In this document: positions 7,835-24,768 of the stretch, piece after piece
Layout of the letters: every line of letters starts with the position of its first letter
Position numbering within the stretch: the stretch's first letter is position 1
Assembly (NCBI GenBank): GCA_000296795.1
Contig: BAFH01000003.1
Span: 1,747,290-1,779,289 of the forward strand
DNA length: 32,000 bases
Direction: 5' to 3'
Source of the DNA: Candidatus Jettenia caeni
GTDB taxonomy: Bacteria > Planctomycetota > Brocadiia > Brocadiales > Brocadiaceae
The notes under the pieces: model-generated
Told to the model about the DNA's origin: nothing
Database searches by the model: none
What the model saw: the letters and a program-made list of their open reading frames with translations, nothing else
Position numbers and translations under genes: made by a program

Positions 7835-7867
7835 TGTCATTCCCGAATGCCTTTATCGGGAATCCAG
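7835..7867. repeat. 33-nt palindromic element tgtcattcccgaatgcctttatcgggaatccag
   Basis: A second copy lies at 15059-15091 (tgtcattcccgaatgtctgtatcgggaatccag), differing at about 3 positions. Stem attcccga/tcgggaat. Confidence 0.85.
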
Positions 7868-7966
7868 TGTGCAGAAGGAAAGTTCAATTTACAAAATTGA
7901 ACCCGCAAGGGGTATAGGTAAATAACATTCCCCGGCTTACCTCTTTCCCATGAGTTATACCGTTTT

Positions 7967-8012
7967 GTGCCATGTCGCATTCTCGCAATGACACATCTTT
8001 GTGACGTGGCAC
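7967..8012. promoter_or_regulatory. Imperfect inverted repeat gtgccatgtcgca-N20-tgtgacgtggcac; candidate enhancer (UAS) for the adjacent EBPs
   Basis: Arms match 11/13 as reverse complements. They share the core CCA(T/C)GTC(A/G)CA with the palindrome at 10073-10117. The repeat lies about 320 nt upstream of the EBP paralog 2 start. The spacer contains a solo arm (ctcgcaatgacaca) of the 12359-12439 hairpin family, so a REP origin is an alternative. Confidence 0.3.
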
Positions 8013-8245
8013 GTTTTTTTAATGTATCATATGGACTATTTCATTACGTGCCAATTAATTCGATTAAATTTCAATTATACCAGCAATAAAGTAGCTCTTT
8101 GGACAAAAACGACTCAAGGAGTGTTACTGATCTCGTATGAGAGTCTGAGGAGAGAGAATGTTTTCCATGTATAATTTTCAAAATAAAAGAATTTACAGGC
8201 ATCTCACAATAAAAATTTAATTATTCTTTGCTCCTTATATACCAT

Positions 8246-8261
8246 TGGCACAATTTTTTCT
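8246..8261 (+). promoter_or_regulatory. Weak sigma-54-like element TGGCAC-aattt-TTTCT upstream of EBP paralog 2
   Basis: Perfect -24 TGGCAC with correct spacing, but the -12 position reads TC instead of the conserved GC. About 75 nt upstream of the ATG at 8335. Confidence 0.25.
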
Positions 8262-8334
8262 ATATAAGCTGTGTAGAAAAATTAAAAGTATCTTTTGAAG
8301 AGTATATAGTTTGTTTTAATCTTAGGGAGGATTG

Positions 8335-10038: not shown

Positions 10039-10072
10039 CCATTCCTTAGCCTATATCTTCCTCACGTATATG

Positions 10073-10117
10073 TGTCATGTCACAGTATGTGACAAGACAC
10101 TTCTGTACCATGTCACA
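10073..10117. promoter_or_regulatory. Palindrome tgtcatgtcaca-gta-tgtgacaagaca (core TGTCAC-N5-GTGACA, 10078-10094) plus a third half-site ccatgtcaca (10108-10117)
   Basis: Read directly from the sequence. TGT-N11-ACA dyad geometry resembles the UAS sites of NtrC/NifA-family activators. It starts 35 nt after the EBP paralog 2 stop codon. Confidence 0.35.
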
Positions 10118-10539
10118 CCTCATGTTGTTAAATATGTACGATAATCTGATCTTGAAAGTGTCTGTAGATAGTTTTATCTATTTATTACAAAATGAGATAA
10201 GAACAGTCTATTCCGGTGATATATAATGAATTCATGACGAAATTCATCGTGTAGGTTAAGAGTCAATTCTGGCTAAATGTTGTGCCATCTTACCCATGAT
10301 TCAGGGTTATCGATCATGTTGGAAAAATCATACTTATGTAACCTTATGATTTAGTATCTTGTAGCACAAAAGGTATGGAAGGCCTGTCCCTACAGTACAG
10401 TAAATGAAATTTCATAAGGTTATATATTAGTTGGATTTATGTACATACCATATTGAAATTCTGTCAAAATCTAGTGCTTTAAATTAACGATGTAAAGCCT
10501 TTTTCTTTTCTCTATTTCCTCTTTGCGTTTGTACATTAA

Positions 10540-10555
10540 TGGCCTGTTTTTTGCT
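10540..10555 (+). promoter_or_regulatory. Sigma-54 promoter candidate TGGCCT-gtttt-TTGCT
   Basis: GG at 10541-42 and GC at 10553-54 have exactly the canonical 12-nt offset, with a -12 TTGCT. The next + strand gene is the PAS/HD-GYP CDS about 515 nt downstream. Confidence 0.45.
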
Positions 10556-10603
10556 TAAAACTACGAGAAGTAAGCTGCGTTTTAATAAAAACTTAAGAAC
10601 ATG

Positions 10604-10999
10604 TATAGGAATTTCAAATTTAGCCACGAATGTTCACGAATAGACACGAATATTATGAAAATAAAAGATTTGTGCTCATTTCGTGTTCATTCGTGGCCTA
10701 AAAGAGTGTCCGAATGCCTAATTTAACGTATAGGAATTTCAATATGTGTTGTAGGGTCGAAGCATTTGTCGTTATTGGCCTAAAATACTATGTATACGTT
10801 GAACGGCAAATGCTTCGCCCCCTACGCTTGGCCGCAAAATAAAAGTCGCCAAAGACCTAATTTAATGCATAGGAAATTCAAACAAAGAGTTCCTCCCCCT
10901 TGAGGGGGGAGGTTAGGTGGGGGTGAAGGAAAAGGACAACCACCCTCCCCTGGCCCCTCCCATCAAGGGAGGGGAAAAGGTCGCCGAAGGTCTAGTTTA
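10604..10999. repeat. Tandem array of three linker-plus-hairpin modules
   Basis: A conserved linker (cctaatttaaYgYataggaa(a)ttcaa) occurs at 10604-10617, 10729-10742 and 10868-10881. Each copy is followed by a different long hairpin: 10623-10697 (gccacgaatgttcacgaa.../...ttcgtgttcattcgtggc), 10751-10825 (gtagggtcgaagcatttg.../...caaatgcttcgccccctac) and 10891-10980 (C/G-tract double hairpin). Each hairpin is followed by a related aaaagtcgcc(a/g)aag..cta.ttta flank. Confidence 0.8.
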
Positions 11000-11070
11000 T
11001 TTGTTATTAAGCGTATGATACTGGTAGATTATCAAAGTTCCGGTAAGAAAAATACCTTTATTGTCCTGTT

Positions 11071-12249
11071 TTGTATATTGGAGATTTCAGATTGGAGATA
11101 TCAAAATTTATTTATACATTGACTGAAAATGAACAGGCAAGGCTATTGCTCGCTGGCTTGAATGACCTTGCGTATATCTATGATACAGAGGGAAATATTG
11201 TATTTGTAAACAAAGTATTTGAGAAGCTGACAGGACATAAAGCGGAAGAATTCTTTGGAAAACCATTCACGTCCCTTTTTGAAGAAGATGATATAAAAAA
11301 GGCACTGGATACTTATACAAGAACGCTTCAGGGGGAGAGCCCACACTATGAAATCTATTTTAGAAATACAAAAGTATTCTGTGAGTATAAAAATTCTCTT
11401 TTGACAGATGAGAGGGGAAATATAATTGGAGTTGCTGGTATTGCCAGAGATATTACCCTTCGTAAGGAACGCGAAGAAGAGTTGAAAGCACTTAACAAAT
11501 CTTTAGAAAAACGGGTAGTTGAACATTCAACAAAACTTATGAAGATAAATGAAGAATTAACAGAAGAAATGAACGATCACAAACGGATAGAGGCGGAATT
11601 CAAACAAGATATTGAGAAGTTACAGAGGTCTTTAAGGATAATTATTCATATCCTTGCCTCTGCGATTGAGTCGAAAGACATCTTTGCGGTTGATCACCAA
11701 AAACGTGTAACCCGGCTTGCCCGATGTATAGCAGAAGAGATGGGTCTTTTAAAGGACAGGGTTGATAGTATCTGTTTGGCAGCCGCTCTCCATGATATAG
11801 GAAAAGTGTCTGTGCCGGCAGAGATCCTTGGAAAAGTTGAGCAGCTTACCGAGAGCGAGTTGAATGTGCTTAAGGCTCATTCGAGGGTAGGCTATGATAT
11901 AGTAAGAGAAATAGAATTTCCTTCCCCTGTTGCTCAAATTGTGCTTCAGCATCATGAAAGAATTGATGGTTCCGGATATCCTATGCGTCTGACAAGTAAA
12001 GATATACTTTTGGAAGCCAAGATTTTAAGTGTGGCCGATGTTGTAGAGGCGATATCCTTTCCTCGTCCTTATCGGTCAACCTTTGGTCTGGATAATGCGC
12101 TGGAGGAGATCTCCCGAAACAAGGGCATTCTTTACGATTTTAATGTGGTGAACGCCTGTCTGACTGTTTTTCATGAAAAAGGATTTACCTTTGAACAGGA
12201 ATTATACTCAAATGTAAAACTTCTCGACGATGTTTTATTGAGGAGATAA
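11071..12249 (+). CDS. PAS-domain HD-GYP c-di-GMP phosphodiesterase
   Basis: 392 aa. N-terminal PAS (GNIVFVNKVFEKLTGHKAEEFFGKPF...IARDIT), then a coiled coil, then an HD-GYP domain with HDIGK and HHERIDGSGYP. The start is uncertain: TTG at 11071, other in-frame TTGs at 11092 and 11116, and no clear RBS. Confidence 0.85.
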   Translation: MYIGDFRLEISKFIYTLTENEQARLLLAGLNDLAYIYDTEGNIVFVNKVFEKLTGHKAEEFFGKPFTSLFEEDDIKKALDTYTRTLQGESPHYEIYFRNTKVFCEYKNSLLTDERGNIIGVAGIARDITLRKEREEELKALNKSLEKRVVEHSTKLMKINEELTEEMNDHKRIEAEFKQDIEKLQRSLRIIIHILASAIESKDIFAVDHQKRVTRLARCIAEEMGLLKDRVDSICLAAALHDIGKVSVPAEILGKVEQLTESELNVLKAHSRVGYDIVREIEFPSPVAQIVLQHHERIDGSGYPMRLTSKDILLEAKILSVADVVEAISFPRPYRSTFGLDNALEEISRNKGILYDFNVVNACLTVFHEKGFTFEQELYSNVKLLDDVLLRR

Positions 12250-12358
12250 TTTTGTTGTCTAATAGCGGGACACAGATTAACACAGATAAGTACAAAATGT
12301 AGCGAAAGTTGATCTTGGGTTGTATGCAAATGTAGGGAACATACGGAACCTTAAACAT

Positions 12359-12439
12359 GTCATTGCGAGGGGTATTTCCCGAAGCAATCTCTTTTGAAAT
12401 GTCTAAAGGATTACTTCGGACAATACCCCTCGCAATGAC
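12359..12439. repeat. 81-nt near-perfect long hairpin (MITE/REP-like)
   Basis: Outer arms gtcattgcgaggggtatt (12359-12376) and aatacccctcgcaatgac (12422-12439) are perfect complements. Inner arms ccgaagcaatc/gattacttcgg match 10/11. A solo arm copy ctcgcaatgacaca lies at 7982-7995. Confidence 0.8.
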
Positions 12440-12584
12440 ACAGCCCCATGCAGTTGAACCGATACAAACCGTATTATCATGAATTCTATTGACAGTGTAC
12501 CGGGCGGATCAGAACGTTCGGTATCGTCGTATTTTGTAACACAAGTTTAAAGTCTGGAGTACCTTCGAAAGAGGATAATAGTAC

Positions 12585-12863
12585 ATGAGAACCAATAAAT
12601 TCTTTGTATGTCCAAACTGTGGTAATATCAAAAAATTTAAAGTATTTACGAGTAATTTTCAAATAGTTACACAATCCCCGGAATTAGGAATACGCATGAA
12701 TGAAAGCGGTGTTTTGCCTAATTTGCGGCAGGCGGATAATTATATTGAGTGTCAACTGTGTTTTAAAAAATCAGAATACGACGCAGCAGTAAACCTTGGT
12801 GAGAAATATATCAAAGACATATCAAATCAGTCCAGGGAATTAAGGCGGTATACTGAGATGTAA
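12585..12863 (+). CDS. Small zinc-ribbon protein (two CxxC pairs), function unknown
   Basis: 92 aa with CPNC (residues 9-12) and CQLC (56-59). Good RBS agagga 8 nt upstream of the ATG. It sits between the HD-GYP and GGDEF genes. Confidence 0.6.
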   Translation: MRTNKFFVCPNCGNIKKFKVFTSNFQIVTQSPELGIRMNESGVLPNLRQADNYIECQLCFKKSEYDAAVNLGEKYIKDISNQSRELRRYTEM

Positions 12864-12889
12864 AAAGTAGCTAATTTGGCAAAGCAAAA

Positions 12890-12906
12890 TGTATGCTATA
12901 CATACA
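12890..12906. promoter_or_regulatory. Palindrome TGTATG-ctata-CATACA (TGT-N11-ACA), with an extra TGTATG half-site at 12911-12916
   Basis: Perfect dyad about 230 nt upstream of the sigma-54 promoter at 13134, with the same dyad geometry as 10078-10094. The AT-rich context raises the chance expectation. Confidence 0.25.
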
Positions 12907-13133
12907 GTGCTGTATGATTTAAAAACAGATAAATATGCATATAAAGATTTTATTTTAGAATACTTATGATAATTTATAAGTAAAACAGTATGAATAACAT
13001 ACAGGCAGTACAAGTGAAAATTTCTCTTTATGGAAAAGGGATACTACAATAAACTAAATATATGTAGTGTAATAAGTTATATTTTAAATAGTTATATATT
13101 ATTCTTATAAAAATTTTCACATAAGGCATTTCC

Positions 13134-13149
13134 TGGCAAGTACATTGCT
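13134..13149 (+). promoter_or_regulatory. Sigma-54 promoter candidate cTGGCAA-gtaca-TTGCTa
   Basis: Matches the consensus TGGCAC-N5-TTGCW at all but one position. GG at 13135-36 and GC at 13147-48 have the exact 12-nt offset. It lies 55-90 nt upstream of the two candidate starts of the GGDEF gene. Confidence 0.65.
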
Positions 13150-13203
13150 AATGATGGGATGGCAATGTTATACAGCATTAAAAATAATTTTGCATGATAT
13201 CTT

Positions 13204-14244
13204 GTGTTTGGTGTCTGTTTGAAGAAATATACAAGATTAATGAAAGATGCAATGAAACTGCTTGAGAACTATAAAAAAATAAGAGTTGTGAATAAAGTGT
13301 TAAATATAGCGCCAAATCATATGAAGATGAAAGTAAATCATTATGCCCTTGTTGAAACATTTGTAGATGCTATTATATCGGCAAATCAGGAAGGGTGTAT
13401 TGTTTATTGTAACCCTGCAGCAAAAAAGATGTTTGGATATCAGGAAGAGATCATTGGTTGCGATATTACTATCCTTATGCCTGAACGATATCGGCTAAAA
13501 TATCAAATAGGTATGACGAAGTACATAAATACAGGGCTAACAAGGATTATGGGACAAACCATAGAGTTAGTTGGTTTAAAGAAGGATGGTATTGAATTTC
13601 CCATAGAGTTATCTGTATCGGCATGCATGGTTGATAATCGATATTTTTTTACCGGTATTATCCGGGATATTACTGAAAGAAAGTGTACGGAGTTTAAACT
13701 CCTCGAGTCTAATAGGAAATTACAAGAACTTTCTATTAAGGATAGTTTAACGAATTTATATAATCGGCGTCATACTTTTCATGTAATGGAAATTGAATTC
13801 AACAGGGCAAAAAGATATCAAAAATCTCTCTCATGTTTAATGATCGATATAGATTATTTTAAAAATATCAATGATCTCTATGGTCATCCCTTTGGAGATA
13901 AAGTACTCGTACATTTTTCCTCCTTTTTACTCAATATGATACGCTCTACCGATATAGTTTCCCGATATGGAGGTGAGGAGTTTCTTGTTATTCTTCCCGA
14001 TGTAGATATAAAGGGTGCTATGGACTTTGCTGAAAGATTACGGGAGGCCGTGTCTAAACATACTATAGAGGATAAAGAAAGGAATATAAATGCAGCATTG
14101 AGCATCAGTGTTGGAGTCAGCTCTTTTACAGATAGTACACTTAATAAAGAAGAAATAATAAGCCAGGCAGATAAAGCCCTTTACGAGGCCAAGCGATCGG
14201 GAAGAAATAGAGTTTGCTGTATTCAAACTTGTAAGACTGTTTAA
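13204..14244 (+). CDS. PAS-domain diguanylate cyclase (GGDEF)
   Basis: 346 aa. PAS (GCIVYCNPAAKKMFGYQEEIIG...IIRDITERK). GGDEF domain with active-site RYGGEEF and an upstream I-site RSTD (RxxD, 5 residues before GGEEF). GTG at 13204; the in-frame ATG at 13240 is an alternative start. Confidence 0.9.
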   Translation: MFGVCLKKYTRLMKDAMKLLENYKKIRVVNKVLNIAPNHMKMKVNHYALVETFVDAIISANQEGCIVYCNPAAKKMFGYQEEIIGCDITILMPERYRLKYQIGMTKYINTGLTRIMGQTIELVGLKKDGIEFPIELSVSACMVDNRYFFTGIIRDITERKCTEFKLLESNRKLQELSIKDSLTNLYNRRHTFHVMEIEFNRAKRYQKSLSCLMIDIDYFKNINDLYGHPFGDKVLVHFSSFLLNMIRSTDIVSRYGGEEFLVILPDVDIKGAMDFAERLREAVSKHTIEDKERNINAALSISVGVSSFTDSTLNKEEIISQADKALYEAKRSGRNRVCCIQTCKTV

Positions 14245-14335: not shown

Positions 14336-14412
14336 CATATGCATCAAGCTAACATGAGGAAACGGTGAAGAATAACAAACCATCCATAATCCCCCTTTAG
14401 AAAAAGGGGAAA
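14336..14412. repeat. Direct repeat copy A (catatgcatcaagctaacatgaggaaacggtgaagaataacaaac...) ending in a cccccttt-aga-aaagggg mini-hairpin
   Basis: About 60 nt nearly identical (2-3 mismatches) to copy B at 14739. Confidence 0.8.
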
Positions 14413-14491
14413 TCTCTCGTTCCCCCCTTTTCTAGCTTATCATTTACCCACATCTTTCTCTTTCGTACACCCTATATTCCATAAGAAGTAA

Positions 14492-14672
14492 GCGATAAGT
14501 GGGCAGATATTCTCGTTCCAAAGGAAGAACAGGGTGGCACTGACAAACTCTGTTTGTCAGTGTGGTGTATTCCCTATCTACGGATGTATTCAAACAACAC
14601 GGACAAAAGATCCCCGTGTTCAAGACATACGGGGACATGGTTTGTCCGTGCCATCCTGTTTCGTCTTATCGC
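14492..14672. other. Nested multi-hairpin island (possible structured RNA or clustered REPs)
   Basis: Closing stem gcgataag (14492-99) / cttatcgc (14665-72). Inside it are an 11-bp perfect stem cactgacaaac-tct-gtttgtcagtg (14538-14562) and a two-tier stem: cacggacaaa (14598-607) / tttgtccgtg (14641-50) enclosing ccccgt (14612-17) / acgggg (14629-34). No match to an RNA family that I recognise. Confidence 0.3.
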
Positions 14673-14738: not shown

Positions 14739-14826
14739 CATATGCATCAAGCTAACATGTGGAAACGGTGAAGAATAACAAATCACCCATAATCCCCCTT
14801 GGTCCCCCTTTAGAAAAGGGGGAAAT
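14739..14826. repeat. Direct repeat copy B, followed by further ccccttt-aga-aaagggg type hairpins through about 14960
   Basis: catatgcatcaagctaacatgtggaaacggtgaagaataacaaatcaccc..., 403 nt downstream of copy A. The motif ggggaggttagg also recurs at about 10906, 14722 and 14935. Confidence 0.8.
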
Positions 14827-15058
14827 GCATAATCTCCCTTAGTCTCCCTTTAGAAAATGGGGAAAAGTTTGATATGTTTGATCAGACAAACTTTTCTCAA
14901 GAGGAAATCTTTCCTCCTTTCCCCTCTTTTTTAAAGGGGGGTTAGGGGGGATTAGAGGGGTGCATGAACACATATTACTCTTTTTCCAGGGAAATACTTT
15001 TTTTTCAGGGATAGCAAACCTAAAAGTTTTTCCTATACAATTGAATTTCCTAAACATT

Positions 15059-15252: not shown

Positions 15253-15281
15253 TTGACATTAATTTTGTAAACTTGTAAAAT
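15253..15281 (+). promoter_or_regulatory. Sigma-70-type promoter TTGACA-N17-TAAAAT for the acpS/radical SAM operon
   Basis: ttgaca at 15253-15258, a 17-nt spacer, and taaaat at 15276-15281. About 70 nt upstream of the ATG at 15353. Confidence 0.6.
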
Positions 15282-15352
15282 GCCGTTTTCTCAGTAACAG
15301 ATACTTGTATGATAAGTAGTTACAATAATTCCCATTATTGCATGGAATACGT

Positions 15353-15730
15353 ATGTACATTGGCATTGATATAATAGAAATAAAACGTATTGAAAGGTTA
15401 TTTTCTTCTAATGAGGGTTTTTTGAGGAAAATTTATACGGAAAAAGAAGTAGAATACTGTAATCAAAAAAAGAATAAATATCAGCATTTTGCAGCACGCT
15501 TTGCTACCAAAGAGGCTGTATTCAAGGCATTAGGGACAGGCTGGATAGGCGCTATGAAATGGACAGACATTGAGTTGTTGAACGACGAAATGGGAAAACC
15601 GTATTTGAACCTTTATGGAAGTGTAAAAGAACTGGCAAACAAAAAGAATATTAACAATATTTCTGTATCAGTATCCCATTGCCGGGATTATGCTATTGCT
15701 CAGGTATTATTAGTGCCGGGGAGTATGTGA
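15353..15730 (+). CDS. acpS: Holo-[acyl-carrier-protein] synthase (4'-phosphopantetheinyl transferase, AcpS type)
   Basis: MYIGIDIIEIKRIE... N-terminus, FAARFATKEAVFKALG motif and a C-terminal SVSHCRDYAIAQV, all typical of AcpS at about 125 aa. The ATG at 15353 is preferred over the listed TTG at 15338. Confidence 0.85.
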   Translation: MYIGIDIIEIKRIERLFSSNEGFLRKIYTEKEVEYCNQKKNKYQHFAARFATKEAVFKALGTGWIGAMKWTDIELLNDEMGKPYLNLYGSVKELANKKNINNISVSVSHCRDYAIAQVLLVPGSM

Positions 15731-15820: not shown

Positions 15821-17299
15821 ATGAAAAAACTCGTACTGATTAATCCTCATCCGGTTGGAAATGTTGGGGAAGAAAATGTTTCTGTGCTAAATCAGATGCC
15901 GGTGAATCTCGGTTATCTTAAGAGGTTGACGCCGCAGCATTGGCAGGTTGATATTATTGATGAGACCCAGGAGCTTGCTATTGATAGCGCAGGGAATATT
16001 ACTTTCAGTGGGGCAGATCTGGTGGGTATTACATCGGTAAGTTATCAGGCTCATCGCGCCTACCAAATAGCTACTGCCTGCAAAAAAAAAGGCATACCTG
16101 TCATTATGGGTGGAATTCATGCTACGAGCTATCCGGAAGAGGTTGCAAAATATGTAGATTGTGTTGTTACCAGAGAGGCTATAACAACCTGGGAAAAGAT
16201 ACTGGCTGATTTTGAAAATGGTGTTCTTCAAAAGAGATACGATGGTGATCTGACACCCATGGAGCTTTATCGTGATCTGAGGTCCGATAGGGAATATTTG
16301 AAGAATAAATACAAATATAGATATTCAGGCATCATAACGACGGCCGGATGTCCGTTTAGTTGCGAGTTTTGTTCTGTCCCTCAGTTTCAGGGTAAAAAAT
16401 ATCGGGAAAGGCCTATTGAAGATGTCCTGGATGAATTAGAATCCATTAAGGGTCAATATCGTGGCCTGATATTAACGGATGAAAACTTTTATGGCCATAG
16501 TAAAAAATCCAACGAGCGTGTTCGTGCACTTTTCAAGGGTATGGTGGAAAGAGGTATTTATCAAAATTGGTTTGGTTTTACCTCTCTTAATATTTACTCG
16601 GATGATGAAACCCTTGAATATATGGTCAAGAGCGGATGCGTTGGGGTGCTTATCGGAATTGAATCTATCAACGAAGAAGCCCTGAAAACCATGAATAAAA
16701 ATGTGAATTTGCGTATCTCAATAGAGAAGTACTTCGAGGCAATTGCTAACATCCGTAAACATGGTCTTGCTGTATGGGGGACTATGGTTTTCGGAAACGA
16801 TGCCGATACGCCTGAGACATTTAAGCAAGTTGCTGATTTTGTTTTAGATTCTCATGTAGATGTTATGACGTGCGGTATTTTATGCCCATTTATTAACACA
16901 CCGCTTTATCATAGGTTAAAAAGTGATAATAGACTTTTTCGGACAAATTTTCCTGAGGATTGGAAGTACTATACATCTCATCACCTTACCTATATCCTCA
17001 AGAATATGTCTCTCCAGGAGCTTATTGATGGCTTTCAGTATCTCTATGATAAAATTTATGCTACGGAGGTGTTACGACAAAGATTCCAGAATGCTAAGGA
17101 CGTGTTGAGCAAGAATATGAATGCCGCTATGTTTGCATTCAGGGTCAATTTAGATTGGCAGAACGTGTATCAACACTTGATCCAAAATTTAAAAGAATTG
17201 CAGGCATCGGGATTTTACGATGAGGTCCTGAAGCTCTATAATGAATCGGAAAGACAAGGGAAAAAGACATCATTGACGCCAATTGAGGTCCCATCATAA
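15821..17299 (+). CDS. B12-binding-domain radical SAM enzyme (class B-like)
   Basis: 492 aa. The N-terminal cobalamin-binding-type Rossmann region (LVLINPHP...ADLVGITSVSYQAHRAYQIATACKKKGIPVIMGGIHAT) is followed by the radical SAM cluster motif CPFSCEFC (CxxxCxxC). Confidence 0.85.
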   Translation: MKKLVLINPHPVGNVGEENVSVLNQMPVNLGYLKRLTPQHWQVDIIDETQELAIDSAGNITFSGADLVGITSVSYQAHRAYQIATACKKKGIPVIMGGIHATSYPEEVAKYVDCVVTREAITTWEKILADFENGVLQKRYDGDLTPMELYRDLRSDREYLKNKYKYRYSGIITTAGCPFSCEFCSVPQFQGKKYRERPIEDVLDELESIKGQYRGLILTDENFYGHSKKSNERVRALFKGMVERGIYQNWFGFTSLNIYSDDETLEYMVKSGCVGVLIGIESINEEALKTMNKNVNLRISIEKYFEAIANIRKHGLAVWGTMVFGNDADTPETFKQVADFVLDSHVDVMTCGILCPFINTPLYHRLKSDNRLFRTNFPEDWKYYTSHHLTYILKNMSLQELIDGFQYLYDKIYATEVLRQRFQNAKDVLSKNMNAAMFAFRVNLDWQNVYQHLIQNLKELQASGFYDEVLKLYNESERQGKKTSLTPIEVPS

Positions 17300-17484: not shown

Positions 17485-18138
17485 ATGCCATCTACAAAGG
17501 ATAGGGTTGATAATCTCGAGAGGGTACTTGAAGAATATATTAAAAATATCGGCAATGCTCAGATGCAGACCGAAAGAGAAATTCGGGAATTCAAGGGAGA
17601 GGTGAAAGAGTTTAAAGATGAGATGAAGGAGTTTAAAGATGAAATGAAGGAATTCAAAGACGAGATGAAGGAATTTAAGGATGAAATGAGGGAAGATAGG
17701 AGAAATATGAACAAAAAGTGGGGTGAAATTGCCAATAAAATGGGGACGGTGGTAGAAGATATCGTAGCGCCCAATATCCCACGGATTGCACAAGAATACT
17801 TTCAATGCGAAGATGCGGAATTTTTTGGGTTAAGGGTAACGAAAAGAAATTCAAAGGATAAATCAAGAAGCAGGGAGTTTGATATAATCGCTGTATACGA
17901 TGATAAGATACTTATAAACGAAACTAAATCTTCACCAAGTATTGATTACATCAACGAATTTACCGAGGTACTGAAAGAGGTTTACGATTACTTTCCCGAG
18001 TATAAAGGAAAAAGAATAATTCCTATATTTTCTTCCCTTTATATTCCGGAAAATGTGGTAACGTATCTTACCAAAGTGAAAATTTACGCCATGGCTATGA
18101 AGGATGATGGTATGGAGTTATTGAATCCCCATATTTGA
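17485..18138 (+). CDS. Coiled-coil protein with heptad tandem repeat and a C-terminal PD-(D/E)xK nuclease-fold-like domain
   Basis: 217 aa. The N-terminus contains (K/R)EFKDEM x5. The C-terminal domain has REFDIIAV...ILINETK, fitting a D...ExK restriction-endonuclease-like motif. RBS-like aggtt precedes the ATG. Confidence 0.6.
   Translation: MPSTKDRVDNLERVLEEYIKNIGNAQMQTEREIREFKGEVKEFKDEMKEFKDEMKEFKDEMKEFKDEMREDRRNMNKKWGEIANKMGTVVEDIVAPNIPRIAQEYFQCEDAEFFGLRVTKRNSKDKSRSREFDIIAVYDDKILINETKSSPSIDYINEFTEVLKEVYDYFPEYKGKRIIPIFSSLYIPENVVTYLTKVKIYAMAMKDDGMELLNPHI
17584..17694 (+). repeat. 21-bp tandem repeat (about 5 copies) encoding the heptad K-E-F-K-D-E-M
   Basis: Units start at 17584, 17605, 17626, 17647 and 17668. 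The copies differ mainly at synonymous positions (gag/gaa, ttt/ttc, aaa/aag, gat/gac). Confidence 0.9.
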
Positions 18139-18199: not shown

Positions 18200-19438
18200 T
18201 TGTTTCTGATTACTGAAAAAAATAAGTCAAAAGTGGTAATTACCGGATTAGGACTGGTTACCCCTGTTGGGATAGGTGTTCAAAAAAGTTGGGAATCCTT
18301 TATCCATGGCTGCGATGGAGCTAATGAGATGAAGTCGTTCGATACCTCCCAGTACAAGGTTCACCGTTCTTGTGAGGTAAAGGATTTTCATCTGGATGTT
18401 GAATTAGAGAATCAAATAAAGGAAAACACCATCCATAAATATGTTTATTATGCAGCCCGGGAGGCATTACAGGAAAGCGGTTTGTCGCATGATAAGAGCA
18501 GCTTCAATAAGGAACGTTTTGGTATTGCTATGGGAACCTTAGCTGCTGAATTAACACCTCATGAAAGACTTTTACGATTACATACCTCAAAAAAAGATAA
18601 CGGTTTTGATAAGATTGTTGCTGCTGTTTATCCTCCGAATTCTATTACGAATATCCTCGCTCAATATTTTCACTTTGAGGGGCCTACCATGGTCTCGCTG
18701 AATGCCTGTTCTTCAGGTAATCATGCCATTGCCTGGGCTTACGACCTTCTTATAGAGAATAAGGTAGATGTTGTAATGGTTGGCGGAGGGGATATGATCC
18801 CTCAAACGGAATTTACTCATTTCCATAATCTCAAAGCGCTTGCTCCTGAGCATTGTCAGCCCTTTGATAAAAACAGGCAAGGACTTATGATCGGAGAAGG
18901 AGCCGGTATCTTGATCATGGAACGTTATGAATTTGCCAGGAAAAGGGGGGCGGTTATTATTGCTGAAATGGCGGGTTATGGATTAAGCTGTGATGGATTC
19001 CATATGACAGCGCCTCATCCGGAGGGTGAAGGTGCTGTAAAATGTATGGGTGATGCGCTAAAAATGGCAAGGCTTTCTCCGTCTGATATCGGCTATATCA
19101 ATGCACATGGTACGGGTACGCCACATAATGATAAGGCGGAGACTATTGCTATAAAGCACTTGTTCAGGGATCATGCTTATAACATTCCCTGCAGTTCCAC
19201 AAAATCCATGATAGGTCATCTTATGGGTGCAGCGAGTGCTGTAGAATCTGTTATATGCTGCCTTGCATTACGATACGGAATATTGCCTCCAACAATTCAT
19301 TACCATACACCTGATCCGGAGTGTGACCTTGATTATATACCTAACAGGGCGCGGGAGTTAACCGTTAAGCATGTTTTAAATAACTCATTTGCCTTTGGTG
19401 GTAATAATGCTACCACGATATTCAGTAAAATAGAATAG
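18200..19438 (+). CDS. Beta-ketoacyl-ACP synthase (FabF/KS-alpha-like, catalytically intact)
   Basis: 412 aa. Active-site Cys in SLNACSSGNHAI, His in INAHGTGTPHND, and His in KSMIGHLMGAAS. TTG start at 18200; the exact start is uncertain (GTG at 18233 would give VVITGLG). Confidence 0.9.
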   Translation: MFLITEKNKSKVVITGLGLVTPVGIGVQKSWESFIHGCDGANEMKSFDTSQYKVHRSCEVKDFHLDVELENQIKENTIHKYVYYAAREALQESGLSHDKSSFNKERFGIAMGTLAAELTPHERLLRLHTSKKDNGFDKIVAAVYPPNSITNILAQYFHFEGPTMVSLNACSSGNHAIAWAYDLLIENKVDVVMVGGGDMIPQTEFTHFHNLKALAPEHCQPFDKNRQGLMIGEGAGILIMERYEFARKRGAVIIAEMAGYGLSCDGFHMTAPHPEGEGAVKCMGDALKMARLSPSDIGYINAHGTGTPHNDKAETIAIKHLFRDHAYNIPCSSTKSMIGHLMGAASAVESVICCLALRYGILPPTIHYHTPDPECDLDYIPNRARELTVKHVLNNSFAFGGNNATTIFSKIE

Positions 19439-19451
19439 TCTTCACATACTT

Positions 19452-20681
19452 ATGAAACGAAGGGTCGTAGTTACAGGAATAGGGATTGTATCACCTCTTG
19501 GATTTACCAAAGATGATTTTTGGAATAACCTCGTAGAGGGAAAATTGGGCATTGCGCCAATGACATCTCTTGATCTCTCACCATATACATGCAAGCTTGG
19601 CGGAGAGGTTAGAGACCTTCGTCCCGAAATCTATCTTGGCAATAAAGGTTTGAAGTACTTGCATAAAGGCACAAGGTTCTTAGGATCGGCCACGAAGATG
19701 GCGCTTGATGATGCAAAGTTACCGCAGGATAGTTCTTTATCGGATCAAATGGGTGTGGTTGTTGGATCGTCTTTAGGCAATTTTTCTGAAACAACAGATT
19801 ATTTCTATGAGATTATCAGAAATAATCCTTCAGAATTATCGCCGATGGTCAGCTATGATGTTGCATTAAATTCTTCAATTAACTACGTTTCTGTTACCTT
19901 TAAGATAAAGGGACTTGCACGGACTATATCAGCAGGTTTCACATCAAGCGCGGATGCGATAGGGAATGCATATGGTATAATTCAGCGAGATATGGCCAAA
20001 GTTATTATTGCGGGCGGGGTCGAGCAGATTTCTATCGATCTGTATCTCATATTTTATCTGCGAGGTCTCTTATCAGGTCTCGATGGCACAAAGGAGGCTG
20101 GTTTACCCTTCGATAATAAAAGGAATGGTTTTGTAATGTCTGAAGGCAGTTATGTGGTTATTCTCGAAGAGCTTCAGCATGCTCTGGACAGGGGAGCGCC
20201 TATCTACGCAGAAGTAAGAGGCTTTGGAAATACCTTTGTAGGTGGTAAAAATTATTCGAAAGAGGAAAGGGCGCGCCGTGTTGAAAGGGCTATGTACAGC
20301 GCCTTGGAGGAAGCAGATATTCAGAAAGAAACTATTGATCTTATCAGCGCAAATGCAAATGGATGCAAGATGCAGGATGCTATTGAAGCACAGGCAATCC
20401 AATCCTTTTATGGCTCAAAGGGCAATGATATTCCTGTCTCGGCAATAAAATCGAATATGGGTGAATCTTATGGCGCCGCAGGTGCTGCTCAGTTTATTTC
20501 TACTGTCATGTCTATACATACCGGCACAATACCTCACATCATCAATCACAACGAAAAAGACCCGAAAGTTAATCTAAATCTTATCCTGCAGAATCCCGTC
20601 AGGAAAGAAATTCAAAATGCACTGGTAAACACCATGGATTACGATGGAAATAATTCATGTTTGGTGATAAGTAAATTATGA
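19452..20681 (+). CDS. Ketosynthase paralog lacking the Cys-His-His triad (chain-length-factor / KS-beta-like)
   Basis: 409 aa with a KS fold (RRVVVTGIGIVSPLG...). Aligned by eye to the upstream KS, the catalytic positions read ISAGFTSSADAIG (Cys to Phe), ISANANGCKMQD (His to Asn) and KSNMGESYGAAG (His to Glu). The gene starts 13 nt after the KS stop. Confidence 0.85.
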   Translation: MKRRVVVTGIGIVSPLGFTKDDFWNNLVEGKLGIAPMTSLDLSPYTCKLGGEVRDLRPEIYLGNKGLKYLHKGTRFLGSATKMALDDAKLPQDSSLSDQMGVVVGSSLGNFSETTDYFYEIIRNNPSELSPMVSYDVALNSSINYVSVTFKIKGLARTISAGFTSSADAIGNAYGIIQRDMAKVIIAGGVEQISIDLYLIFYLRGLLSGLDGTKEAGLPFDNKRNGFVMSEGSYVVILEELQHALDRGAPIYAEVRGFGNTFVGGKNYSKEERARRVERAMYSALEEADIQKETIDLISANANGCKMQDAIEAQAIQSFYGSKGNDIPVSAIKSNMGESYGAAGAAQFISTVMSIHTGTIPHIINHNEKDPKVNLNLILQNPVRKEIQNALVNTMDYDGNNSCLVISKL

Positions 20682-22699
20682 GCAAACTGTTTGAAGAAAT
20701 ACCTGTCGGTCAGATGACAGTAAAAAACAGGATAATCATGTCTGCTATGGATTTGGGATTTACTTCTGACGGTACAGTGAATGACCGGATTGTTCGTTTT
20801 TATGAGGATCGTGCCAAAGGCGGTGTTGGCCTCATTGTTGTAGGTGGTTGTTATCCGGAAATGAATGGTAAGGTTTGGAAGAGTATTATTGGATTAGACA
20901 AGGATGAGCTTATTCCGGGATTACGAAGATTAACCGATACTGTTCATGCCTATCAGGTGCGTATCGCCGCTCAGTTGCTTCACGGTGGCCGCAGCGCCTC
21001 ATCCTTCTTTACAAAAATGCAGCCTGTTTCTCCCTCTCCCCTGGTGCACAGAAGTATCAAACAGGAACCGCATGCCCTGACAGTCTCAGAGATTAAAACA
21101 GTTATCGGTAATTATGTCAGCGCAACCGTAAGGGCAAAGAAGGCCGGCTTTGATGCCGTGGAGCTTCACGGTGGTATGGGATACCTCATTAATCAATTCC
21201 TTTCAAAGGCTACCAATAAGCGTGATGATGGGTATGGTGGAAGTCTTGAAAACAGGGTTCGTTTTGCCAGGGAAATAATAATCGCCATAAAAGAAGCCGT
21301 TGGGAAGGACTACCCTATCATCTTTCGGATGTCAGGAGATGATCTTGTTGCGGAGGGACTCAAAATAGATGAGAGTCTGGAAATTGCCCGGATGTTAGAG
21401 CAATCAGGCGCTGATGCCTTTAACGTATCTCCTGGCTGGCATGAGAGCAGAACGCCTATCCTATCAATGATTATTCCACGGATGGCTTATACCTTTCTTT
21501 CACAAAGAATCAAATCATGCGTAAAAGTTCCGGTAATTGCCTCAGTCAGAATAAACGATCTTACCCTGGCCGAAGAGGTCTTAGACAATGAGCAGGCAGA
21601 CATGGTATCCCTTGGCAGACCACTCATCGTAGACCCTGATCTGCCGAATAAATATAAAAACGGGCAATTTGATGATATCAGAACATGCATTGCCTGTAAT
21701 CAGGGTTGCTTTGATTCTTTGCTGAATTTTAAATCCGTTTCCTGTACGTATAATGCAATGGCAGGGCATGAAGGTGAGTATAAAATAATTCCATCAAGCA
21801 AACCGAAAAAGGTGGTGGTCATAGGCGGGGGACCTGCCGGTATGGAAGCTGCCCGTGTTTTGGCATTACGGGGACACAGGGTTACCTTGTATGAGAGGAA
21901 AAAACATCTGGGCGGTCAATTACGGTATGCCTTTATTCCTCCGGGACGTGAAGAAATACAAAATATTATTACCTACCTGGAAAAACAGATTTTCAGGCTT
22001 AAGGTACATATAAAAACCGGAAAAGAGGCTGATTTACAAATGTTACAGGAGGAACAACCCGATGCCATAGTTGTAGCCACAGGTGGATATCCTGTCATGC
22101 CTGATCTTCCCGGTATAAAAGGGAAACAGGTGTATACAGCAAGTACTATACTGGAGGGAAAAGTTTTATCGGGAAAGGACGTGGTCATACTTGGCGGTGG
22201 AACTGTAGGATGTGAGGTGGCGCTGCACATAGCCAAACAGGGAACAATGAGGCCTGATGTGGCTTGTTTTCTGCTAAAACACAAGGTGCTCAGCGACAGG
22301 GATGTCATTGAATACACTACCAGGGGAAGTAAGGATATCACCATTCTGGAAATGAAAAAGAAAATAGGTGGCGGATTTGGTATTTCCACACGATGGGTTA
22401 TTCTCAATGAGTTAAAAGACGCTGGGGTAAAAGAAATAACAGAAGTGCGGGTGAAGGAAATAATAAATAATGGCGAAAATGGCAGAAAAACGGAAGGCGT
22501 CGTTTATGAAAAGGGCGGAAAAGATTATTTTATCAGGGCCGATACCGTTATTATTGCTGTCGGGTACAGTCCTTATAACGCTATGCAAAAGCAGATAGAA
22601 GGAAAGTTTCCGGAGATATATTGTATTGGTGATTGCGTTAAGGTTCGCACTGCATTAGAAGCTATTCACGAAGGTTTTGAAGTTGCCTTAAAGATATAA
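20678..22699 (+). CDS. 2,4-dienoyl-CoA reductase-like flavoprotein (OYE FMN barrel + 4Fe-4S + FAD/NAD(P) domain; FadH family)
   Basis: 673 aa. OYE motifs are present (NRIIMSAM, RAKGGVGLIVVGG, ELHGGMGYLINQFLS..NKRDDGYGGSLENRVRF). Cys cluster CIACNQGCFD...C. Dinucleotide fold VVVIGGGPAGMEAA. The start overlaps the upstream stop codon (ATGA). Confidence 0.9.
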   Translation: MSKLFEEIPVGQMTVKNRIIMSAMDLGFTSDGTVNDRIVRFYEDRAKGGVGLIVVGGCYPEMNGKVWKSIIGLDKDELIPGLRRLTDTVHAYQVRIAAQLLHGGRSASSFFTKMQPVSPSPLVHRSIKQEPHALTVSEIKTVIGNYVSATVRAKKAGFDAVELHGGMGYLINQFLSKATNKRDDGYGGSLENRVRFAREIIIAIKEAVGKDYPIIFRMSGDDLVAEGLKIDESLEIARMLEQSGADAFNVSPGWHESRTPILSMIIPRMAYTFLSQRIKSCVKVPVIASVRINDLTLAEEVLDNEQADMVSLGRPLIVDPDLPNKYKNGQFDDIRTCIACNQGCFDSLLNFKSVSCTYNAMAGHEGEYKIIPSSKPKKVVVIGGGPAGMEAARVLALRGHRVTLYERKKHLGGQLRYAFIPPGREEIQNIITYLEKQIFRLKVHIKTGKEADLQMLQEEQPDAIVVATGGYPVMPDLPGIKGKQVYTASTILEGKVLSGKDVVILGGGTVGCEVALHIAKQGTMRPDVACFLLKHKVLSDRDVIEYTTRGSKDITILEMKKKIGGGFGISTRWVILNELKDAGVKEITEVRVKEIINNGENGRKTEGVVYEKGGKDYFIRADTVIIAVGYSPYNAMQKQIEGKFPEIYCIGDCVKVRTALEAIHEGFEVALKI

Positions 22700-22756
22700 C
22701 ACGTTTTTACCCCGGATAGACACAGACAAGCATAGATAACAATAAAGGTTTTGACA

Positions 22757-23563
22757 ATGAAAGATATCCGCATGAATCGTGGTGATAACTCCGGTTATGA
22801 TCACATTGAATCCGAAGAAATCAGGGCTCATAATGGTAAGGCCATCGGTATTATTTATCTGAAAAAACCTCCACGAAACTCTATAGGCTCATGGCTTCTG
22901 GATGCCCTCTATGATAAGATGGATCAGTATGAGGGTGATGAAAGAGTGGGCGCTATTATTATTGCCAGTAAACTAAGGGGCGTCTTTAGTGACGGCGCTG
23001 ACCGTGATGAGCTCTTTGGCACCTGGATATCGGGTCTTGTAGCTGATAAGAACTATGAACGGTTTCATCGCGCTCATGAGATGTTTGTGGAGATTGAAAA
23101 TTGTAAAAAGCCTGTTATTGCTGCCATAAACGGAGTTACGATCGGCGCTGGTTTAGAGCTTGCTATGCTGTGTGACCTGCGTATTGCGTCTGAACTTTCC
23201 TTTTTCAGCCTGCCAGAGGCAAAACCTGAACTGAGTATTATTCCCGGTCTTGGAGGTACACAGCGTTTGCCCCGTTATATCGGTATGGCGCGTGCTAAGG
23301 AGATGCTGTTTTTAGGAAAGATGATCCGTGCTGAGACCGCTTTGGAATGGGGTCTCGTTAATCAAATTTCACCTCATAAAGAGGTTATAAACCATGCCAT
23401 AGTTTTGGCAGAAACGTTGTTAGAACGAGATGCAAGGGCGCTCAAAGAGATGAAGAAATGTATCAATTTTGCGGGAGAGAACGATATCCTGAAAGGTATC
23501 GAATATGAGGTGGGTCTCTTTGCAGAGATGATGCGATTAAAATTTTCGAATAAGGGTAAATAA
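22757..23563 (+). CDS. Enoyl-CoA hydratase/isomerase (crotonase superfamily)
   Basis: The oxyanion/catalytic segments NGVTIGAGLELAMLCDLRIA and LPEAKPELSIIPGLGGTQRLPR retain both Glu positions. The ATG at 22757 (RBS aaagg 8 nt upstream) is preferred over the TTG at 22751. Confidence 0.85.
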   Translation: MKDIRMNRGDNSGYDHIESEEIRAHNGKAIGIIYLKKPPRNSIGSWLLDALYDKMDQYEGDERVGAIIIASKLRGVFSDGADRDELFGTWISGLVADKNYERFHRAHEMFVEIENCKKPVIAAINGVTIGAGLELAMLCDLRIASELSFFSLPEAKPELSIIPGLGGTQRLPRYIGMARAKEMLFLGKMIRAETALEWGLVNQISPHKEVINHAIVLAETLLERDARALKEMKKCINFAGENDILKGIEYEVGLFAEMMRLKFSNKGK

Positions 23564-23634: not shown

Positions 23635-24378
23635 ATGGAGTTCAAGGATACCGTAGCAATTGTTACGGGTGGTACCCGGGGTATAGGCAAGTCAATCGCA
23701 TTAGAACTGGCAAAAAACGGCTGCAACATAGCCTTTAACTACAATAAAAATACCGATGCTGCCCATCTTCTGGTAAAGGAAATTGAATCGATGGGTGCAA
23801 AGGCCATTTCTTTCCAGGTAAATGCAGCCAGTTTTGAAGGCGCTAAGAATATGGTAAAAGAAGTGAAGGATAGATTTGGAAAGATTGATTTCCTGGTAAA
23901 TAATGCCGGTATTACCCGTGATAAACTCCTCGCTTTAATGGCAGAGAATGATTGGGATGATGTTATCAATACCAATCTCAAAAGTGTTTATAATTTTTCT
24001 AAATCGGTGATTACCCAGATGATCAAGCAAAAATCAGGTAGCATCCTGAATATAACCTCAGTAAGTGGAATAACGGGAATAGCAGGTCAGGTAAACTATT
24101 CTTCCTCCAAGGCTGGTATGATAGGATTTACCAAGGCCCTTGCCAAAGAGGTGGGGAAGGCAAATATTACGGTAAATGCGATAGCCTGCGGCTTTATTGA
24201 AACAGACATGACGGCAGTTTTGCCTCAGGAATATAAGGATAAAATGATTGAGATGATTCCGGTAAGAAGATTTGGCACACCTGATGATGTTGCCAAAGCG
24301 GCGATTTTCCTGTTATCAGACCATGCTAAATACATTACTGGTCATGTAATTAGCGTCGATGGCGGTTTAGCAATGTAG
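23635..24378 (+). CDS. fabG: 3-oxoacyl-ACP reductase (short-chain dehydrogenase/reductase)
   Basis: 247 aa. TGGTRGIG cofactor motif, NNAG, catalytic S...YSSSK, C-terminal ITGHVISVDGGLAM. RBS aaggagg upstream. Confidence 0.9.
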   Translation: MEFKDTVAIVTGGTRGIGKSIALELAKNGCNIAFNYNKNTDAAHLLVKEIESMGAKAISFQVNAASFEGAKNMVKEVKDRFGKIDFLVNNAGITRDKLLALMAENDWDDVINTNLKSVYNFSKSVITQMIKQKSGSILNITSVSGITGIAGQVNYSSSKAGMIGFTKALAKEVGKANITVNAIACGFIETDMTAVLPQEYKDKMIEMIPVRRFGTPDDVAKAAIFLLSDHAKYITGHVISVDGGLAM

Positions 24379-24456: not shown

Positions 24457-24768
24457 ATGCTATTTTTATTAAAAGTTGAAATAAAGCAGATGCCCCCTTT
24501 GCCGGTAAAAGACTTTTTGGAATATGTTATAAAAGAATGGGAATATTTTTCACGATTTCAAAGGCGTGGTAAGATTATAGCGGGTGGGAAATTAGCTGGT
24601 AAGAGGGGGGCTGCGGCTATAATCGATGCTGAATCCAATGAAGAGATGGAAGATATCGTCTCAAAATTACCGCTCTTTCCGTTCTTTACCGATATAGAAA
24701 TCACGCCTCTTGTGCCTATGGAGAAGGCGCTTCTGGATACCAAGAGGATTCATTCGCTGATGAAGTAG
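24457..24768 (+). CDS. Muconolactone delta-isomerase-family small protein
   Basis: 103 aa. MLFLLKVEIK... at the N-terminus and AAIIDAESNEEMEDIVSKLPLFPFFTDIEITPL closely parallel the CatC-type pattern as I recall it (MLF.V.m......a..iFDv.S.eel..il..LPLFPymdieV.PL). Confidence 0.65.
   Translation: MLFLLKVEIKQMPPLPVKDFLEYVIKEWEYFSRFQRRGKIIAGGKLAGKRGAAAIIDAESNEEMEDIVSKLPLFPFFTDIEITPLVPMEKALLDTKRIHSLMK

Follow-up and report, generated by a model that had tools for sequence, protein, structure and literature searches.

Why should an anammox bacterium keep, directly beside an intact ketosynthase gene, a full-length homologue that has lost the whole catalytic triad? The question is raised by a locus of Candidatus Jettenia caeni (Planctomycetota, Brocadiaceae). 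The window, by which we mean the entire analyzed stretch of 32,000 nucleotides (assembly GCA_000296795.1, contig BAFH01000003.1, positions 1,747,290 to 1,779,289 of the forward strand), contains two adjacent genes for FabF-like ketosynthases (KS), the catalytic KS1 and the triad-less KS2; all coordinates are counted from its first nucleotide and collected in Table 1. The answer we propose is that KS1 and KS2 probably form an obligate pseudo-symmetric heterodimer of the ketosynthase/chain-length-factor (KS/CLF) type, in which, by analogy with a solved sister complex, KS2 would be the non-catalytic subunit that shapes the acyl tunnel. Two elements of this picture are already known, the Phe/Asn/Glu variant since 2009 and the mechanism of a KS/dead-KS pair, described for the sister complex, since 2026. 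What is added here is that the Jettenia pair is a distinct pan-anammox paralogue of the solved heterodimer, that the three mapped tunnel residues of the dead subunit all differ whereas the six mappable ones of the catalytic side are identical, and that the pair travels with a gene for a cobalamin (B12)-binding radical S-adenosylmethionine (SAM) enzyme, also outside anammox bacteria. To our knowledge, the biosynthesis of ladderane lipids in anammox bacteria is unsolved, with no in vitro synthesis and no genetics. If the pair is indeed a second KS/CLF-like heterodimer, anammox cells run two parallel elongases.

Both proteins contain complete PF00109 and PF02801 domains (E-values from 1e-27 to 1e-39) and are 26% identical in the MAFFT alignment; their genes are separated by 13 nt. 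Catalytic columns were read from a HMMER alignment against Bacillus subtilis FabF (4ls5) and checked in a five-sequence MAFFT alignment of KS1, KS2, the B. subtilis protein, and both chains of 9s5h, with the same result. KS1 is intact, with Cys170 (NACSSG, codon 18707-18709), His303 (HGTGT), Lys335, His340 (GHLMG), and the gate residue Phe399. In KS2, the Cys column is occupied by Phe163 (AGFTSS, codon TTC at 19938-19940), the first His column by Asn301 (NANGCK, codon AAT at 20352-20354), and the second by Glu338 (GESYG, codon GAA at 20463-20465), while the catalytic Lys is retained as Lys333. The flanks of all three motifs align without gaps, so the catalytic residues are not present at shifted positions. 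An initial annotation, made by a model from the nucleotide letters and translated reading frames, had read C-H-H in the first protein and F/N/E in the second, and the alignments bear this out column by column. Thus, one subunit has the complete Cys-His-His set and the adjacent full-length homologue lacks all three residues. Because Phe, Asn, and Glu stand at these positions, KS2 can neither form an acyl-enzyme nor decarboxylate its substrate and so cannot be a catalytic ketosynthase; its designation as non-catalytic in the same annotation can be retained.

This gene pair has a literature of its own. In Kuenenia stuttgartiensis, a cluster including Kuste2802 (acpS, the only one of this organism), Kuste2803 (a B12-radical-SAM protein), and Kuste2805, a "putative FabB" with a deviating active site, was catalogued among candidate ladderane-lipid genes; the residues tabulated for Kuste2805 are Phe163, Asn298, Asn300, Cys302, Lys328, Glu333, Gln342, and Phe392 (Rattray et al., 2009, PMC2649909). 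KS2 agrees at seven of the eight (Phe163, Asn301, Asn303, Cys305, Lys333, Glu338, and Gln347) and has Tyr instead of Phe392. The order acpS, B12-radical-SAM gene, intact FabF gene, deviant KS gene on one strand is that of kuste2802-2805 and is found in the window and in 27 of 30 Brocadiaceae loci. The comparison was made through the published annotations and residue table; the genome scan behind our locus set returned no Kuenenia locus (Kuste2805 is CAJ73556). The Jettenia locus differs from the Kuenenia one by an extra coiled-coil open reading frame (ORF) before KS1 and by three enzyme genes directly downstream of KS2, encoding an old yellow enzyme (OYE)-type flavoprotein, a crotonase, and FabG. 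Judged by gene order and by the deviant active-site set, KS1 and KS2 are the Jettenia orthologues of Kuste2804 and Kuste2805. The initial annotation had described the Phe variant as a distinct flavour of chain-length factor; since the Kuste2805 residues were listed in 2009, it is not a new one.

In a later study, Kuste2804 was listed as FabF and Kuste2805 as "non-canonical FabB", and expression of kuste2803 with kuste2804 and of kuste2802 with kuste2805 from separate operons in Escherichia coli yielded insoluble proteins and no new lipid (Javidpour et al., 2016, PMC4790861). Insolubility of the separately expressed Kuste2804 and Kuste2805 is the behaviour expected of an obligate heterodimer. 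A literature search by locus tag found no published proposal or test of a Kuste2804/2805 heterodimer, and the preprint on the sister complex makes no mention of the two proteins (bioRxiv 10.64898/2026.05.19.726425).

The altered active site is not a peculiarity of one genome. Among 230 anammox orthologues of KS2, Phe and Lys are present in all 230, Glu in 229, and Asn in 224, and the reading frame is intact in every one of them (Scalindua, Anammoxibacter, Brocadia, and Jettenia). Within Brocadiaceae (31 orthologues), Phe, Lys, and Glu are invariant, and Asn is found in 29 proteins, with His in the remaining two. At loci L010 and L014, the first His position reads SAHANGCK, with Phe and Glu kept, an apparent one-position reversion. 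The orthologues of KS1 retain C-H-K-H in all 28 complete sequences. Another Candidatus Jettenia assembly (GCA_030263775.1) encodes exactly the same KS2 protein, and its neighbours there are those of the window. Pairwise ratios of nonsynonymous to synonymous substitution rates (dN/dS) are 0.074 for KS2 and 0.046 for KS1, and 151 of the 409 KS2 sites are invariant within Brocadiaceae. Thus, KS2 is under strong purifying selection and is neither a sequencing error nor a decaying gene.

The distribution of conservation along the protein is informative as well. In KS2, column conservation peaks at residues ~100-160, the helix-loop-helix region (mean 0.95-0.97), and is lowest in the C-terminal half, the place of the former His residues (0.73-0.83), whereas in KS1 the pattern is reversed. 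Such a profile is what one would expect if selection acted on the interface and tunnel wall of the subunit and not on catalysis. The KS gene is followed by the dead KS gene on the same strand in 27 of 30 Brocadiaceae loci and in loci L082-L086 (Table 1), and the spacing between them is 6-100 nt in most loci of the Brocadia type.

The closest experimentally characterized system is the amxFabF2/amxFabFmut pair of Brocadia fulgida from anammox Cluster I (kuste3603-3608, the pair itself being kuste3605/3606; PDB 9s5h/9s5i). The two proteins co-purify and form a pseudo-symmetric heterodimer in the crystal; each is inactive alone, and together they decarboxylate malonyl-amxACP and make acetoacetyl-acyl carrier protein (acetoacetyl-ACP) (bioRxiv 10.64898/2026.05.19.726425). 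The same study names Iga11 as the closest structural homologue of amxFabF2 and finds that amxFabFmut resembles FabFs most. In our searches, the best PDB match of KS1 is amxFabF2 (9s5h_B; 1.4e-121, 409 bits, 47% identity), with 178 bits to 9s5h_C, and the best match of KS2 is amxFabFmut (9s5h_C; 8.5e-90, 305 bits, 40% identity), with 205 bits to 9s5h_B. Each Jettenia protein is thus matched to its counterpart subunit. Moreover, the dead subunits of both pairs have Asn/Lys/Glu at the His/Lys/His positions, each is accompanied by an intact FabF-like subunit, and both pairs occur in the same organisms.

A natural question is whether the two pairs are the same system. The KS2 orthologues of Brocadia, Loosdrechtia, and related genera are 73-80% identical to KS2, and those of Scalindua and Anammoxibacter-like lineages ~54-57%, compared with 40% for amxFabFmut. 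In a neighbor-joining (NJ) tree of 95 KS domains, built from representatives of clusters at 50% identity with 100 bootstraps, KS2 falls into a nine-member clade (99/100) that excludes amxFabFmut. KS2 and amxFabFmut are exclusive sisters in 0/100 replicates, whereas KS1, amxFabF2, and the KS domain of the fused protein P0138 fall together (80/100). The gene order is reversed as well, with the dead gene first in Cluster I and KS1 first in the window; the Cys position holds Val/Thr in amxFabFmut and Phe in KS2; and the Cluster I neighbours, i.e., amxACP, amxFabZ, a phytoene-desaturase-like gene, and a different radical SAM gene, are unlike those in the window. Orthology of the two pairs was therefore rejected, given the 47%/40% identities, the absent sisterhood, and the different neighbours, and the window pair is, on phylogeny and identity, a paralogue of amxFabF2/amxFabFmut. 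Distinct paralogous clades together with the reversed gene order indicate that anammox bacteria carry two separate KS/dead-KS pairs.

The solved complex allows the tunnel of the Jettenia pair to be compared residue by residue. The helix-loop-helix of amxFabFmut contributes Phe135, Thr138, and Val139 to the acyl tunnel of the active subunit, and F135G/V139G mutants lose the preference for C6-C8 over C16 (bioRxiv 10.64898/2026.05.19.726425). On the catalytic side, amxFabF2 residues Ala110, Ala164, Cys165, Phe203, Met337, and the gate Phe394 recur unchanged in KS1 and do not vary among its orthologues; Ile112 of the preprint could not be mapped, its column being Glu in both amxFabF2 and KS1, and the published numbering may be off by one residue. 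On the dead side, KS2 residues 103-140 align with amxFabFmut 110-140, the segment holding the three tunnel residues, and all three differ, with Phe135 replaced by Ser134, Thr138 by Val137, and Val139 by Ala138. Ser134 and Ala138 are invariant across the 230 KS2 orthologues. KS2 thus has Ser134 and Ala138 where amxFabFmut has the tunnel-narrowing Phe135 and Val139. If the F135G/V139G mutant is taken as a guide, the KS1-KS2 tunnel is predicted to exceed in width or length that of the Cluster I complex with its C6-C8 preference.

An AlphaFold2 monomer model of KS2, built on a 30-sequence alignment, is of moderate quality, with a predicted local distance difference test (pLDDT) score of 70.5 and a predicted template modeling score of 0.80. 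Confidence is low at residues 33-74, 108-134 (pLDDT <50), 160-163, 193-230, and 335-341. The last four of these stretches correspond to the helix-loop-helix, the loop of Phe163, the helix that contacts the partner, and the loop of Glu338, respectively; the small depth of the alignment may alone account for this. In the homodimer crystal of S. brodae amxFabFmut, residues 110-130 of the helix-loop-helix are disordered (bioRxiv 10.64898/2026.05.19.726425).

Several lines of evidence thus converge on the proposed heterodimer. The best solved-structure match of each subunit is the matching subunit of the 9s5h heterodimer; the catalytic-side tunnel residues are kept, and those of the dead subunit are changed yet invariant among orthologues; KS2 is under purifying selection, with conservation focused on its N-terminal helix-loop-helix half; the order of KS and dead KS is conserved across loci, and natural fusions of the two types exist. 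In the proposed mechanism, KS1 would do all the chemistry, i.e., acyl transfer to Cys170, decarboxylation of malonyl-ACP assisted by His303 and His340, and Claisen condensation. KS2 would take the place of the second FabF protomer and stabilize KS1, and its helix-loop-helix (residues ~103-140) would form the far wall of the KS1 acyl tunnel and so decide which acyl-ACPs are elongated. The role of a pocket-shaping partner, which the initial annotation had presumed, fits both the amxFabF2/amxFabFmut complex and the conservation pattern of KS2; the polyene chemistry it had mentioned as one outcome finds no pointer in the fatty-acid-like operon context. The pathway served by the pair would be ACP-dependent and fatty-acid-like and would include the Kuste2803-type B12-radical-SAM enzyme, which is co-inherited with the pair and would modify the acyl chain. 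A non-canonical elongation cycle could be completed by FabG, the crotonase, and the OYE/FadH-type reductase.

Some observations weigh against this reading or parts of it. The KS1 and KS2 genes are separated by 0.3-1.1 kb in several Brocadia loci and by 4.4 kb in L021, and L020 has no KS1, radical SAM, or acpS gene within 8 kb upstream of KS2 (loci with widened or absent spacing that were considered are L005, L006, L011, L012, L020, L021, L022, and L027). A motif search found no ACP gene in the window. The amxFabFmut protein of S. brodae crystallized as a homodimer, and dead subunits can thus exist alone; furthermore, the only product of the Cluster I complex in vitro was acetoacetyl-ACP (bioRxiv 10.64898/2026.05.19.726425). 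Electrostatic asymmetry has been given as the basis of heterodimerization in that complex (bioRxiv 10.64898/2026.05.19.726425), but a crude net-charge count over the helix-loop-helix (110-140) and the partner helix (196-206) did not reproduce the plus/minus asymmetry even in the B. fulgida pair and speaks neither for nor against heterodimerization. Finally, the link to ladderanes is circumstantial, and a ladderane lipid as the product is clearly less probable than the heterodimer itself. Relatives of the module are found in a Blastocatellia metagenome-assembled genome (MAG) and in metagenome contigs of 56-58% GC, compared with 37-43% GC for the anammox loci. We know of no ladderane producers among Blastocatellia, and the presence of the module outside anammox bacteria weakens the label "ladderane-specific".

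Four other explanations of KS2 have to be considered. According to the published one, KS2 acts alone, as a homodimer or monomer, either as an enzyme other than a ketosynthase or as an acyl-binding protein by which a separately made moiety, e.g., a ladderane unit, enters fatty-acid synthesis (Rattray et al., 2009, PMC2649909). With Lys333 and Glu338 nearly invariant, the old active site may conceivably still bind a ligand or perform some chemistry, amxFabFmut of S. brodae is homodimeric in crystals, and the own tunnel of the dead subunit in 9s5h held a polyethylene glycol molecule. Nevertheless, we consider a solitary KS2 unlikely, given that Phe replaces the nucleophile in 230/230 orthologues, KS2 keeps neither His, conservation is lowest in the half that was once catalytic, and an intact KS precedes KS2 in most Brocadiaceae loci and in L082-L086; the sister protein amxFabFmut was inactive alone in every assay, and the authors of the preprint argue against the model (bioRxiv 10.64898/2026.05.19.726425). 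It is also conceivable that KS2 is a promiscuous subunit that pairs with amxFabF2 or a housekeeping FabF, or an inhibitor that titrates KS1. Such a role would suit the presence of about seven FabB/F paralogues in anammox genomes, the identity of the catalytic-side tunnel residues in KS1 and amxFabF2, and the variable spacing at some Brocadia loci, including L020 with no nearby KS1. It is decidedly improbable in view of the co-inheritance of KS and dead KS as neighbours across anammox families and non-anammox loci, the existence of single-chain KS-dead-KS fusions, and the fact that the Cluster I pair has a dead subunit of its own. An inert relic of a duplicated FabF would agree with the loss of all three catalytic residues, but it is scarcely credible, being already contradicted by the low dN/dS, the intact frames, and the invariant sites described above.

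The remaining explanation, that the pair is a KS/CLF of a type II polyketide synthase (PKS) producing an aromatic or polyene pigment, appeals to the two-gene layout of KS and dead KS, which resembles a minimal PKS, and to weak, below-cut-off matches of KS1 and KS2 to NF005490 and to the cispentacin AmcF model. Type II PKS complexes such as the actinorhodin (1tqy) and AntD/AntE (6smo) pairs do combine a catalytic KS with a homologous, non-catalytic, cavity-shaping subunit. The CLF of the actinorhodin type has Gln at the position of the active-site Cys. KS2 has Phe there, as the initial annotation had pointed out, and its bit scores are 146 to the actinorhodin CLF (1tqy_B), 233 to B. subtilis FabF, and 305 to amxFabFmut. 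The Iga11/Iga12 (6kxd) and ApeO/ApeC (6qsp) pairs of highly reducing type II PKSs are KS/CLF-type heterodimers that work with a ketoreductase and a dehydratase on reduced chains, and KS1 scores 262 bits against 6kxd_A; their clusters, however, yield polyenes and have no B12-radical-SAM partner, unlike the window. ApeC is of half size, with a single thiolase domain (PMC8358021), whereas KS2 is full length, at 409 residues. No cyclase, aromatase, ApeH/P-type dehydratase pair, or aryl-starter ligase is found among the window genes. A Foldseek search of the KS2 model against the PDB (library to 2026-04-08, apparently without 9s5h) returned FabFs first, with TM scores of 0.72-0.78. Thus, KS2 is, by these comparisons, neither an actinorhodin-type nor an ApeC-type CLF, and a PKS is very unlikely here. 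As for FabF itself, the homodimers of B. subtilis (4ls5) and E. coli (2gfw) have the same thiolase fold as KS1 and KS2, but they are symmetric with two active sites, whereas in the window pair one protomer would be replaced by a dead paralogue. Both proteins score below the TIGR03150 fabF equivalog cut-off of 493.75 (KS1, 409 bits; KS2, 319 bits); KS1 passes the cut-off of 387 for the FabF subfamily NF005589 with 400 bits, KS2 fails it with 316, and KS2 remains below every NCBIfam cut-off.

The heterodimer reading gains from a wider view of the family. Among the sampled representatives of clusters at 50% identity, stand-alone dead KS proteins have the general signature x-[N/S/A/C]-K-E, with Phe the commonest residue at the Cys position (about 16 of 34). 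Single-chain fusions in which a dead KS domain comes after an intact one also occur (~800-870 residues) and provide a Rosetta-stone argument for interaction of the two types. P0122, P0124, P0126, P0138, and ~25 others, of ~750-930 residues, join an intact C-H-K-H KS domain to a triad-less one and are thus natural covalent counterparts of the pair. Monophyly of all dead KS, implying a single ancient loss of the triad, is present in the NJ tree with a bootstrap of 23/100 only and is not claimed.

All members of the KS2 clade with readable contigs are located directly downstream of an intact KS and beside one to three B12-radical-SAM genes. The non-anammox loci are 57-58% (radical SAM), 51-57% (KS), and 35-43% (dead KS) identical to the window proteins, and the crotonase gene that directly follows the dead KS in L085 and L086 encodes a protein 44% identical to the window crotonase. 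The KS, dead KS, and radical SAM genes thus behave as a single co-inherited unit that occurs outside anammox bacteria as well, and ladderane-type gene clusters have been called in non-anammox genomes before. In the non-anammox clusters (L083-L086 and the P0170 contig), the dead KS is of the Phe/His/Thr type, the radical SAM proteins are 49-58% identical to that of the window, and a crotonase, an amine-oxidase/phytoene-desaturase-like gene, an ACP, and a FabA-like dehydratase are often present. A profile search for further non-anammox members of the clade was swamped by anammox sequences and added only one match, from Candidatus Hypogeohydataceae.

The tight linkage of the pair to the B12-radical-SAM gene, also outside anammox bacteria, points to where unusual C-C bond chemistry may couple to elongation. 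One can go further and imagine KS1, KS2, and the Kuste2803-type enzyme as one three-gene machine, present in all anammox lineages and rarely elsewhere (Blastocatellia and others). In such a machine, the enlarged tunnel would hold a bulky acyl chain modified by the radical SAM enzyme, and this second heterodimer would handle cyclobutane-bearing ladderane intermediates as an elongase or scaffold, leaving to Cluster I only the short linear C6-C8 part. We regard this extension as speculative and rather doubtful. If it is nevertheless true, the non-anammox homologues could be the first genetically tractable entry to ladderane-type chemistry.

Table 1. Features of the Jettenia caeni window and gene orders of related loci elsewhere.
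Feature	Coordinates	Strand	Remarks
Holo-ACP synthase (AcpS), first operon gene	15338..15730	+	PF01648, 7e-20; counterpart of Kuste2802
Cobalamin-binding radical SAM enzyme with DUF4070	15821..17299	+	PF02310, PF04055, PF13282; counterpart of Kuste2803
Coiled-coil ORF, 217 aa, between radical SAM gene and KS1	17485..18138	+	21-nt tandem repeat; weak DUF8196 match, no NCBIfam match
KS1, catalytic FabF-type ketosynthase	18200..19438	+	412 aa; Pfam; counterpart of Kuste2804
KS2, triad-less ketosynthase paralogue	19452..20681	+	409 aa; Pfam; counterpart of Kuste2805
KS2 helix-loop-helix, residues 103-140	19758..19871	+	predicted lining of the KS1 acyl tunnel; contains invariant Ser134, Val137, Ala138
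OYE/FadH-type Fe-S flavoenzyme (2,4-dienoyl-CoA-reductase-like)	20678..22699	+	PF00724, PF07992; ATG overlaps the KS2 stop (ATGA)
Crotonase-fold enoyl-CoA hydratase/isomerase	22751..23563	+	PF00378, 4.5e-48
3-oxoacyl-ACP reductase (FabG)	23635..24378	+	TIGR01830, 321.7 bits vs cut-off 297.75
Small muconolactone-isomerase-like protein	24457..24768	+	PF02426, 4.5e-14; below TIGR03221 cut-off
L082, Anammoxibacter-like Brocadiales			radical SAM, KS, dead KS, OYE
L083/L084, Blastocatellia MAG (50% GC) and matching JGI metagenome contig			KS, dead KS, radical SAM, DUF374, radical SAM
L085, metagenome contig, 56% GC			amine oxidase, three radical SAM genes, KS, dead KS, crotonase
L086, metagenome contig, 58% GC			SCP2, radical SAM, ACP, FabA-like, radical SAM, KS, dead KS, crotonase
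P0170 contig			FabH, KS, dead KS, FabG, radical SAM, amine oxidase

In the window, the pair belongs to a run of genes that starts with acpS, with a promoter-like site upstream of it at 15253-15281 (score 11/12, weak evidence), and extends to the muconolactone-isomerase-like gene, the last on the forward strand there, which is followed by a convergent hemA. Within Brocadiaceae, the core of acpS, radical SAM, KS1, and KS2 genes is kept, with acpS in the same position in 27 of 30 loci and the B12-radical-SAM protein 82-90% identical across loci, whereas only Jettenia and a few others have the OYE, crotonase, and FabG genes immediately next to it. In L082 and L029, too, the dead KS gene is immediately followed by an OYE-type gene; the window protein is related to the FadH/OYE, BaiCD, and bilirubin-reductase families and scores below their cut-offs. 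Assignment of the window radical SAM protein to rSAM_ladder_B12 (TIGR04072) was rejected, its score being 80 bits against a cut-off of 360. Its scores against the PhpK, BchE, and HpnJ models are similarly low, which places the enzyme in a family without a curated model. An Rfam scan of the window gave zero matches.

The coiled-coil ORF contains a repeat of 21 nt in 4.6 copies at 17599-17694, which translates into the heptad EMKEFKD. The ORF occurs only in this Jettenia and, with 62% identity, in L021, and is absent from Jettenia ecosi (L002) and the Brocadia loci; with such a distribution it looks like a lineage-specific insertion into the operon and is probably outside the core module. Upstream of acpS, the 1.1-kb non-coding gap that separates it from a GGDEF gene contains a 40-nt unit with palindromic C5/G5 arms, repeated twice (14788-14865), and terminator-like hairpins are found nearby at 14406-14425 and 14611-14635. 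The region before the lipid operon (3645-14244) is a dense signalling island encoding PAS histidine kinase, PAS-HD-GYP, and PAS-GGDEF proteins. Two sigma-54 response regulators, paralogous to each other, are also encoded there (5836-7539 and 8332-10038), and 0.8-1 kb of non-coding DNA comes after each. A GGDEF gene adjoins acpS in L002, L010, and L026 as well.

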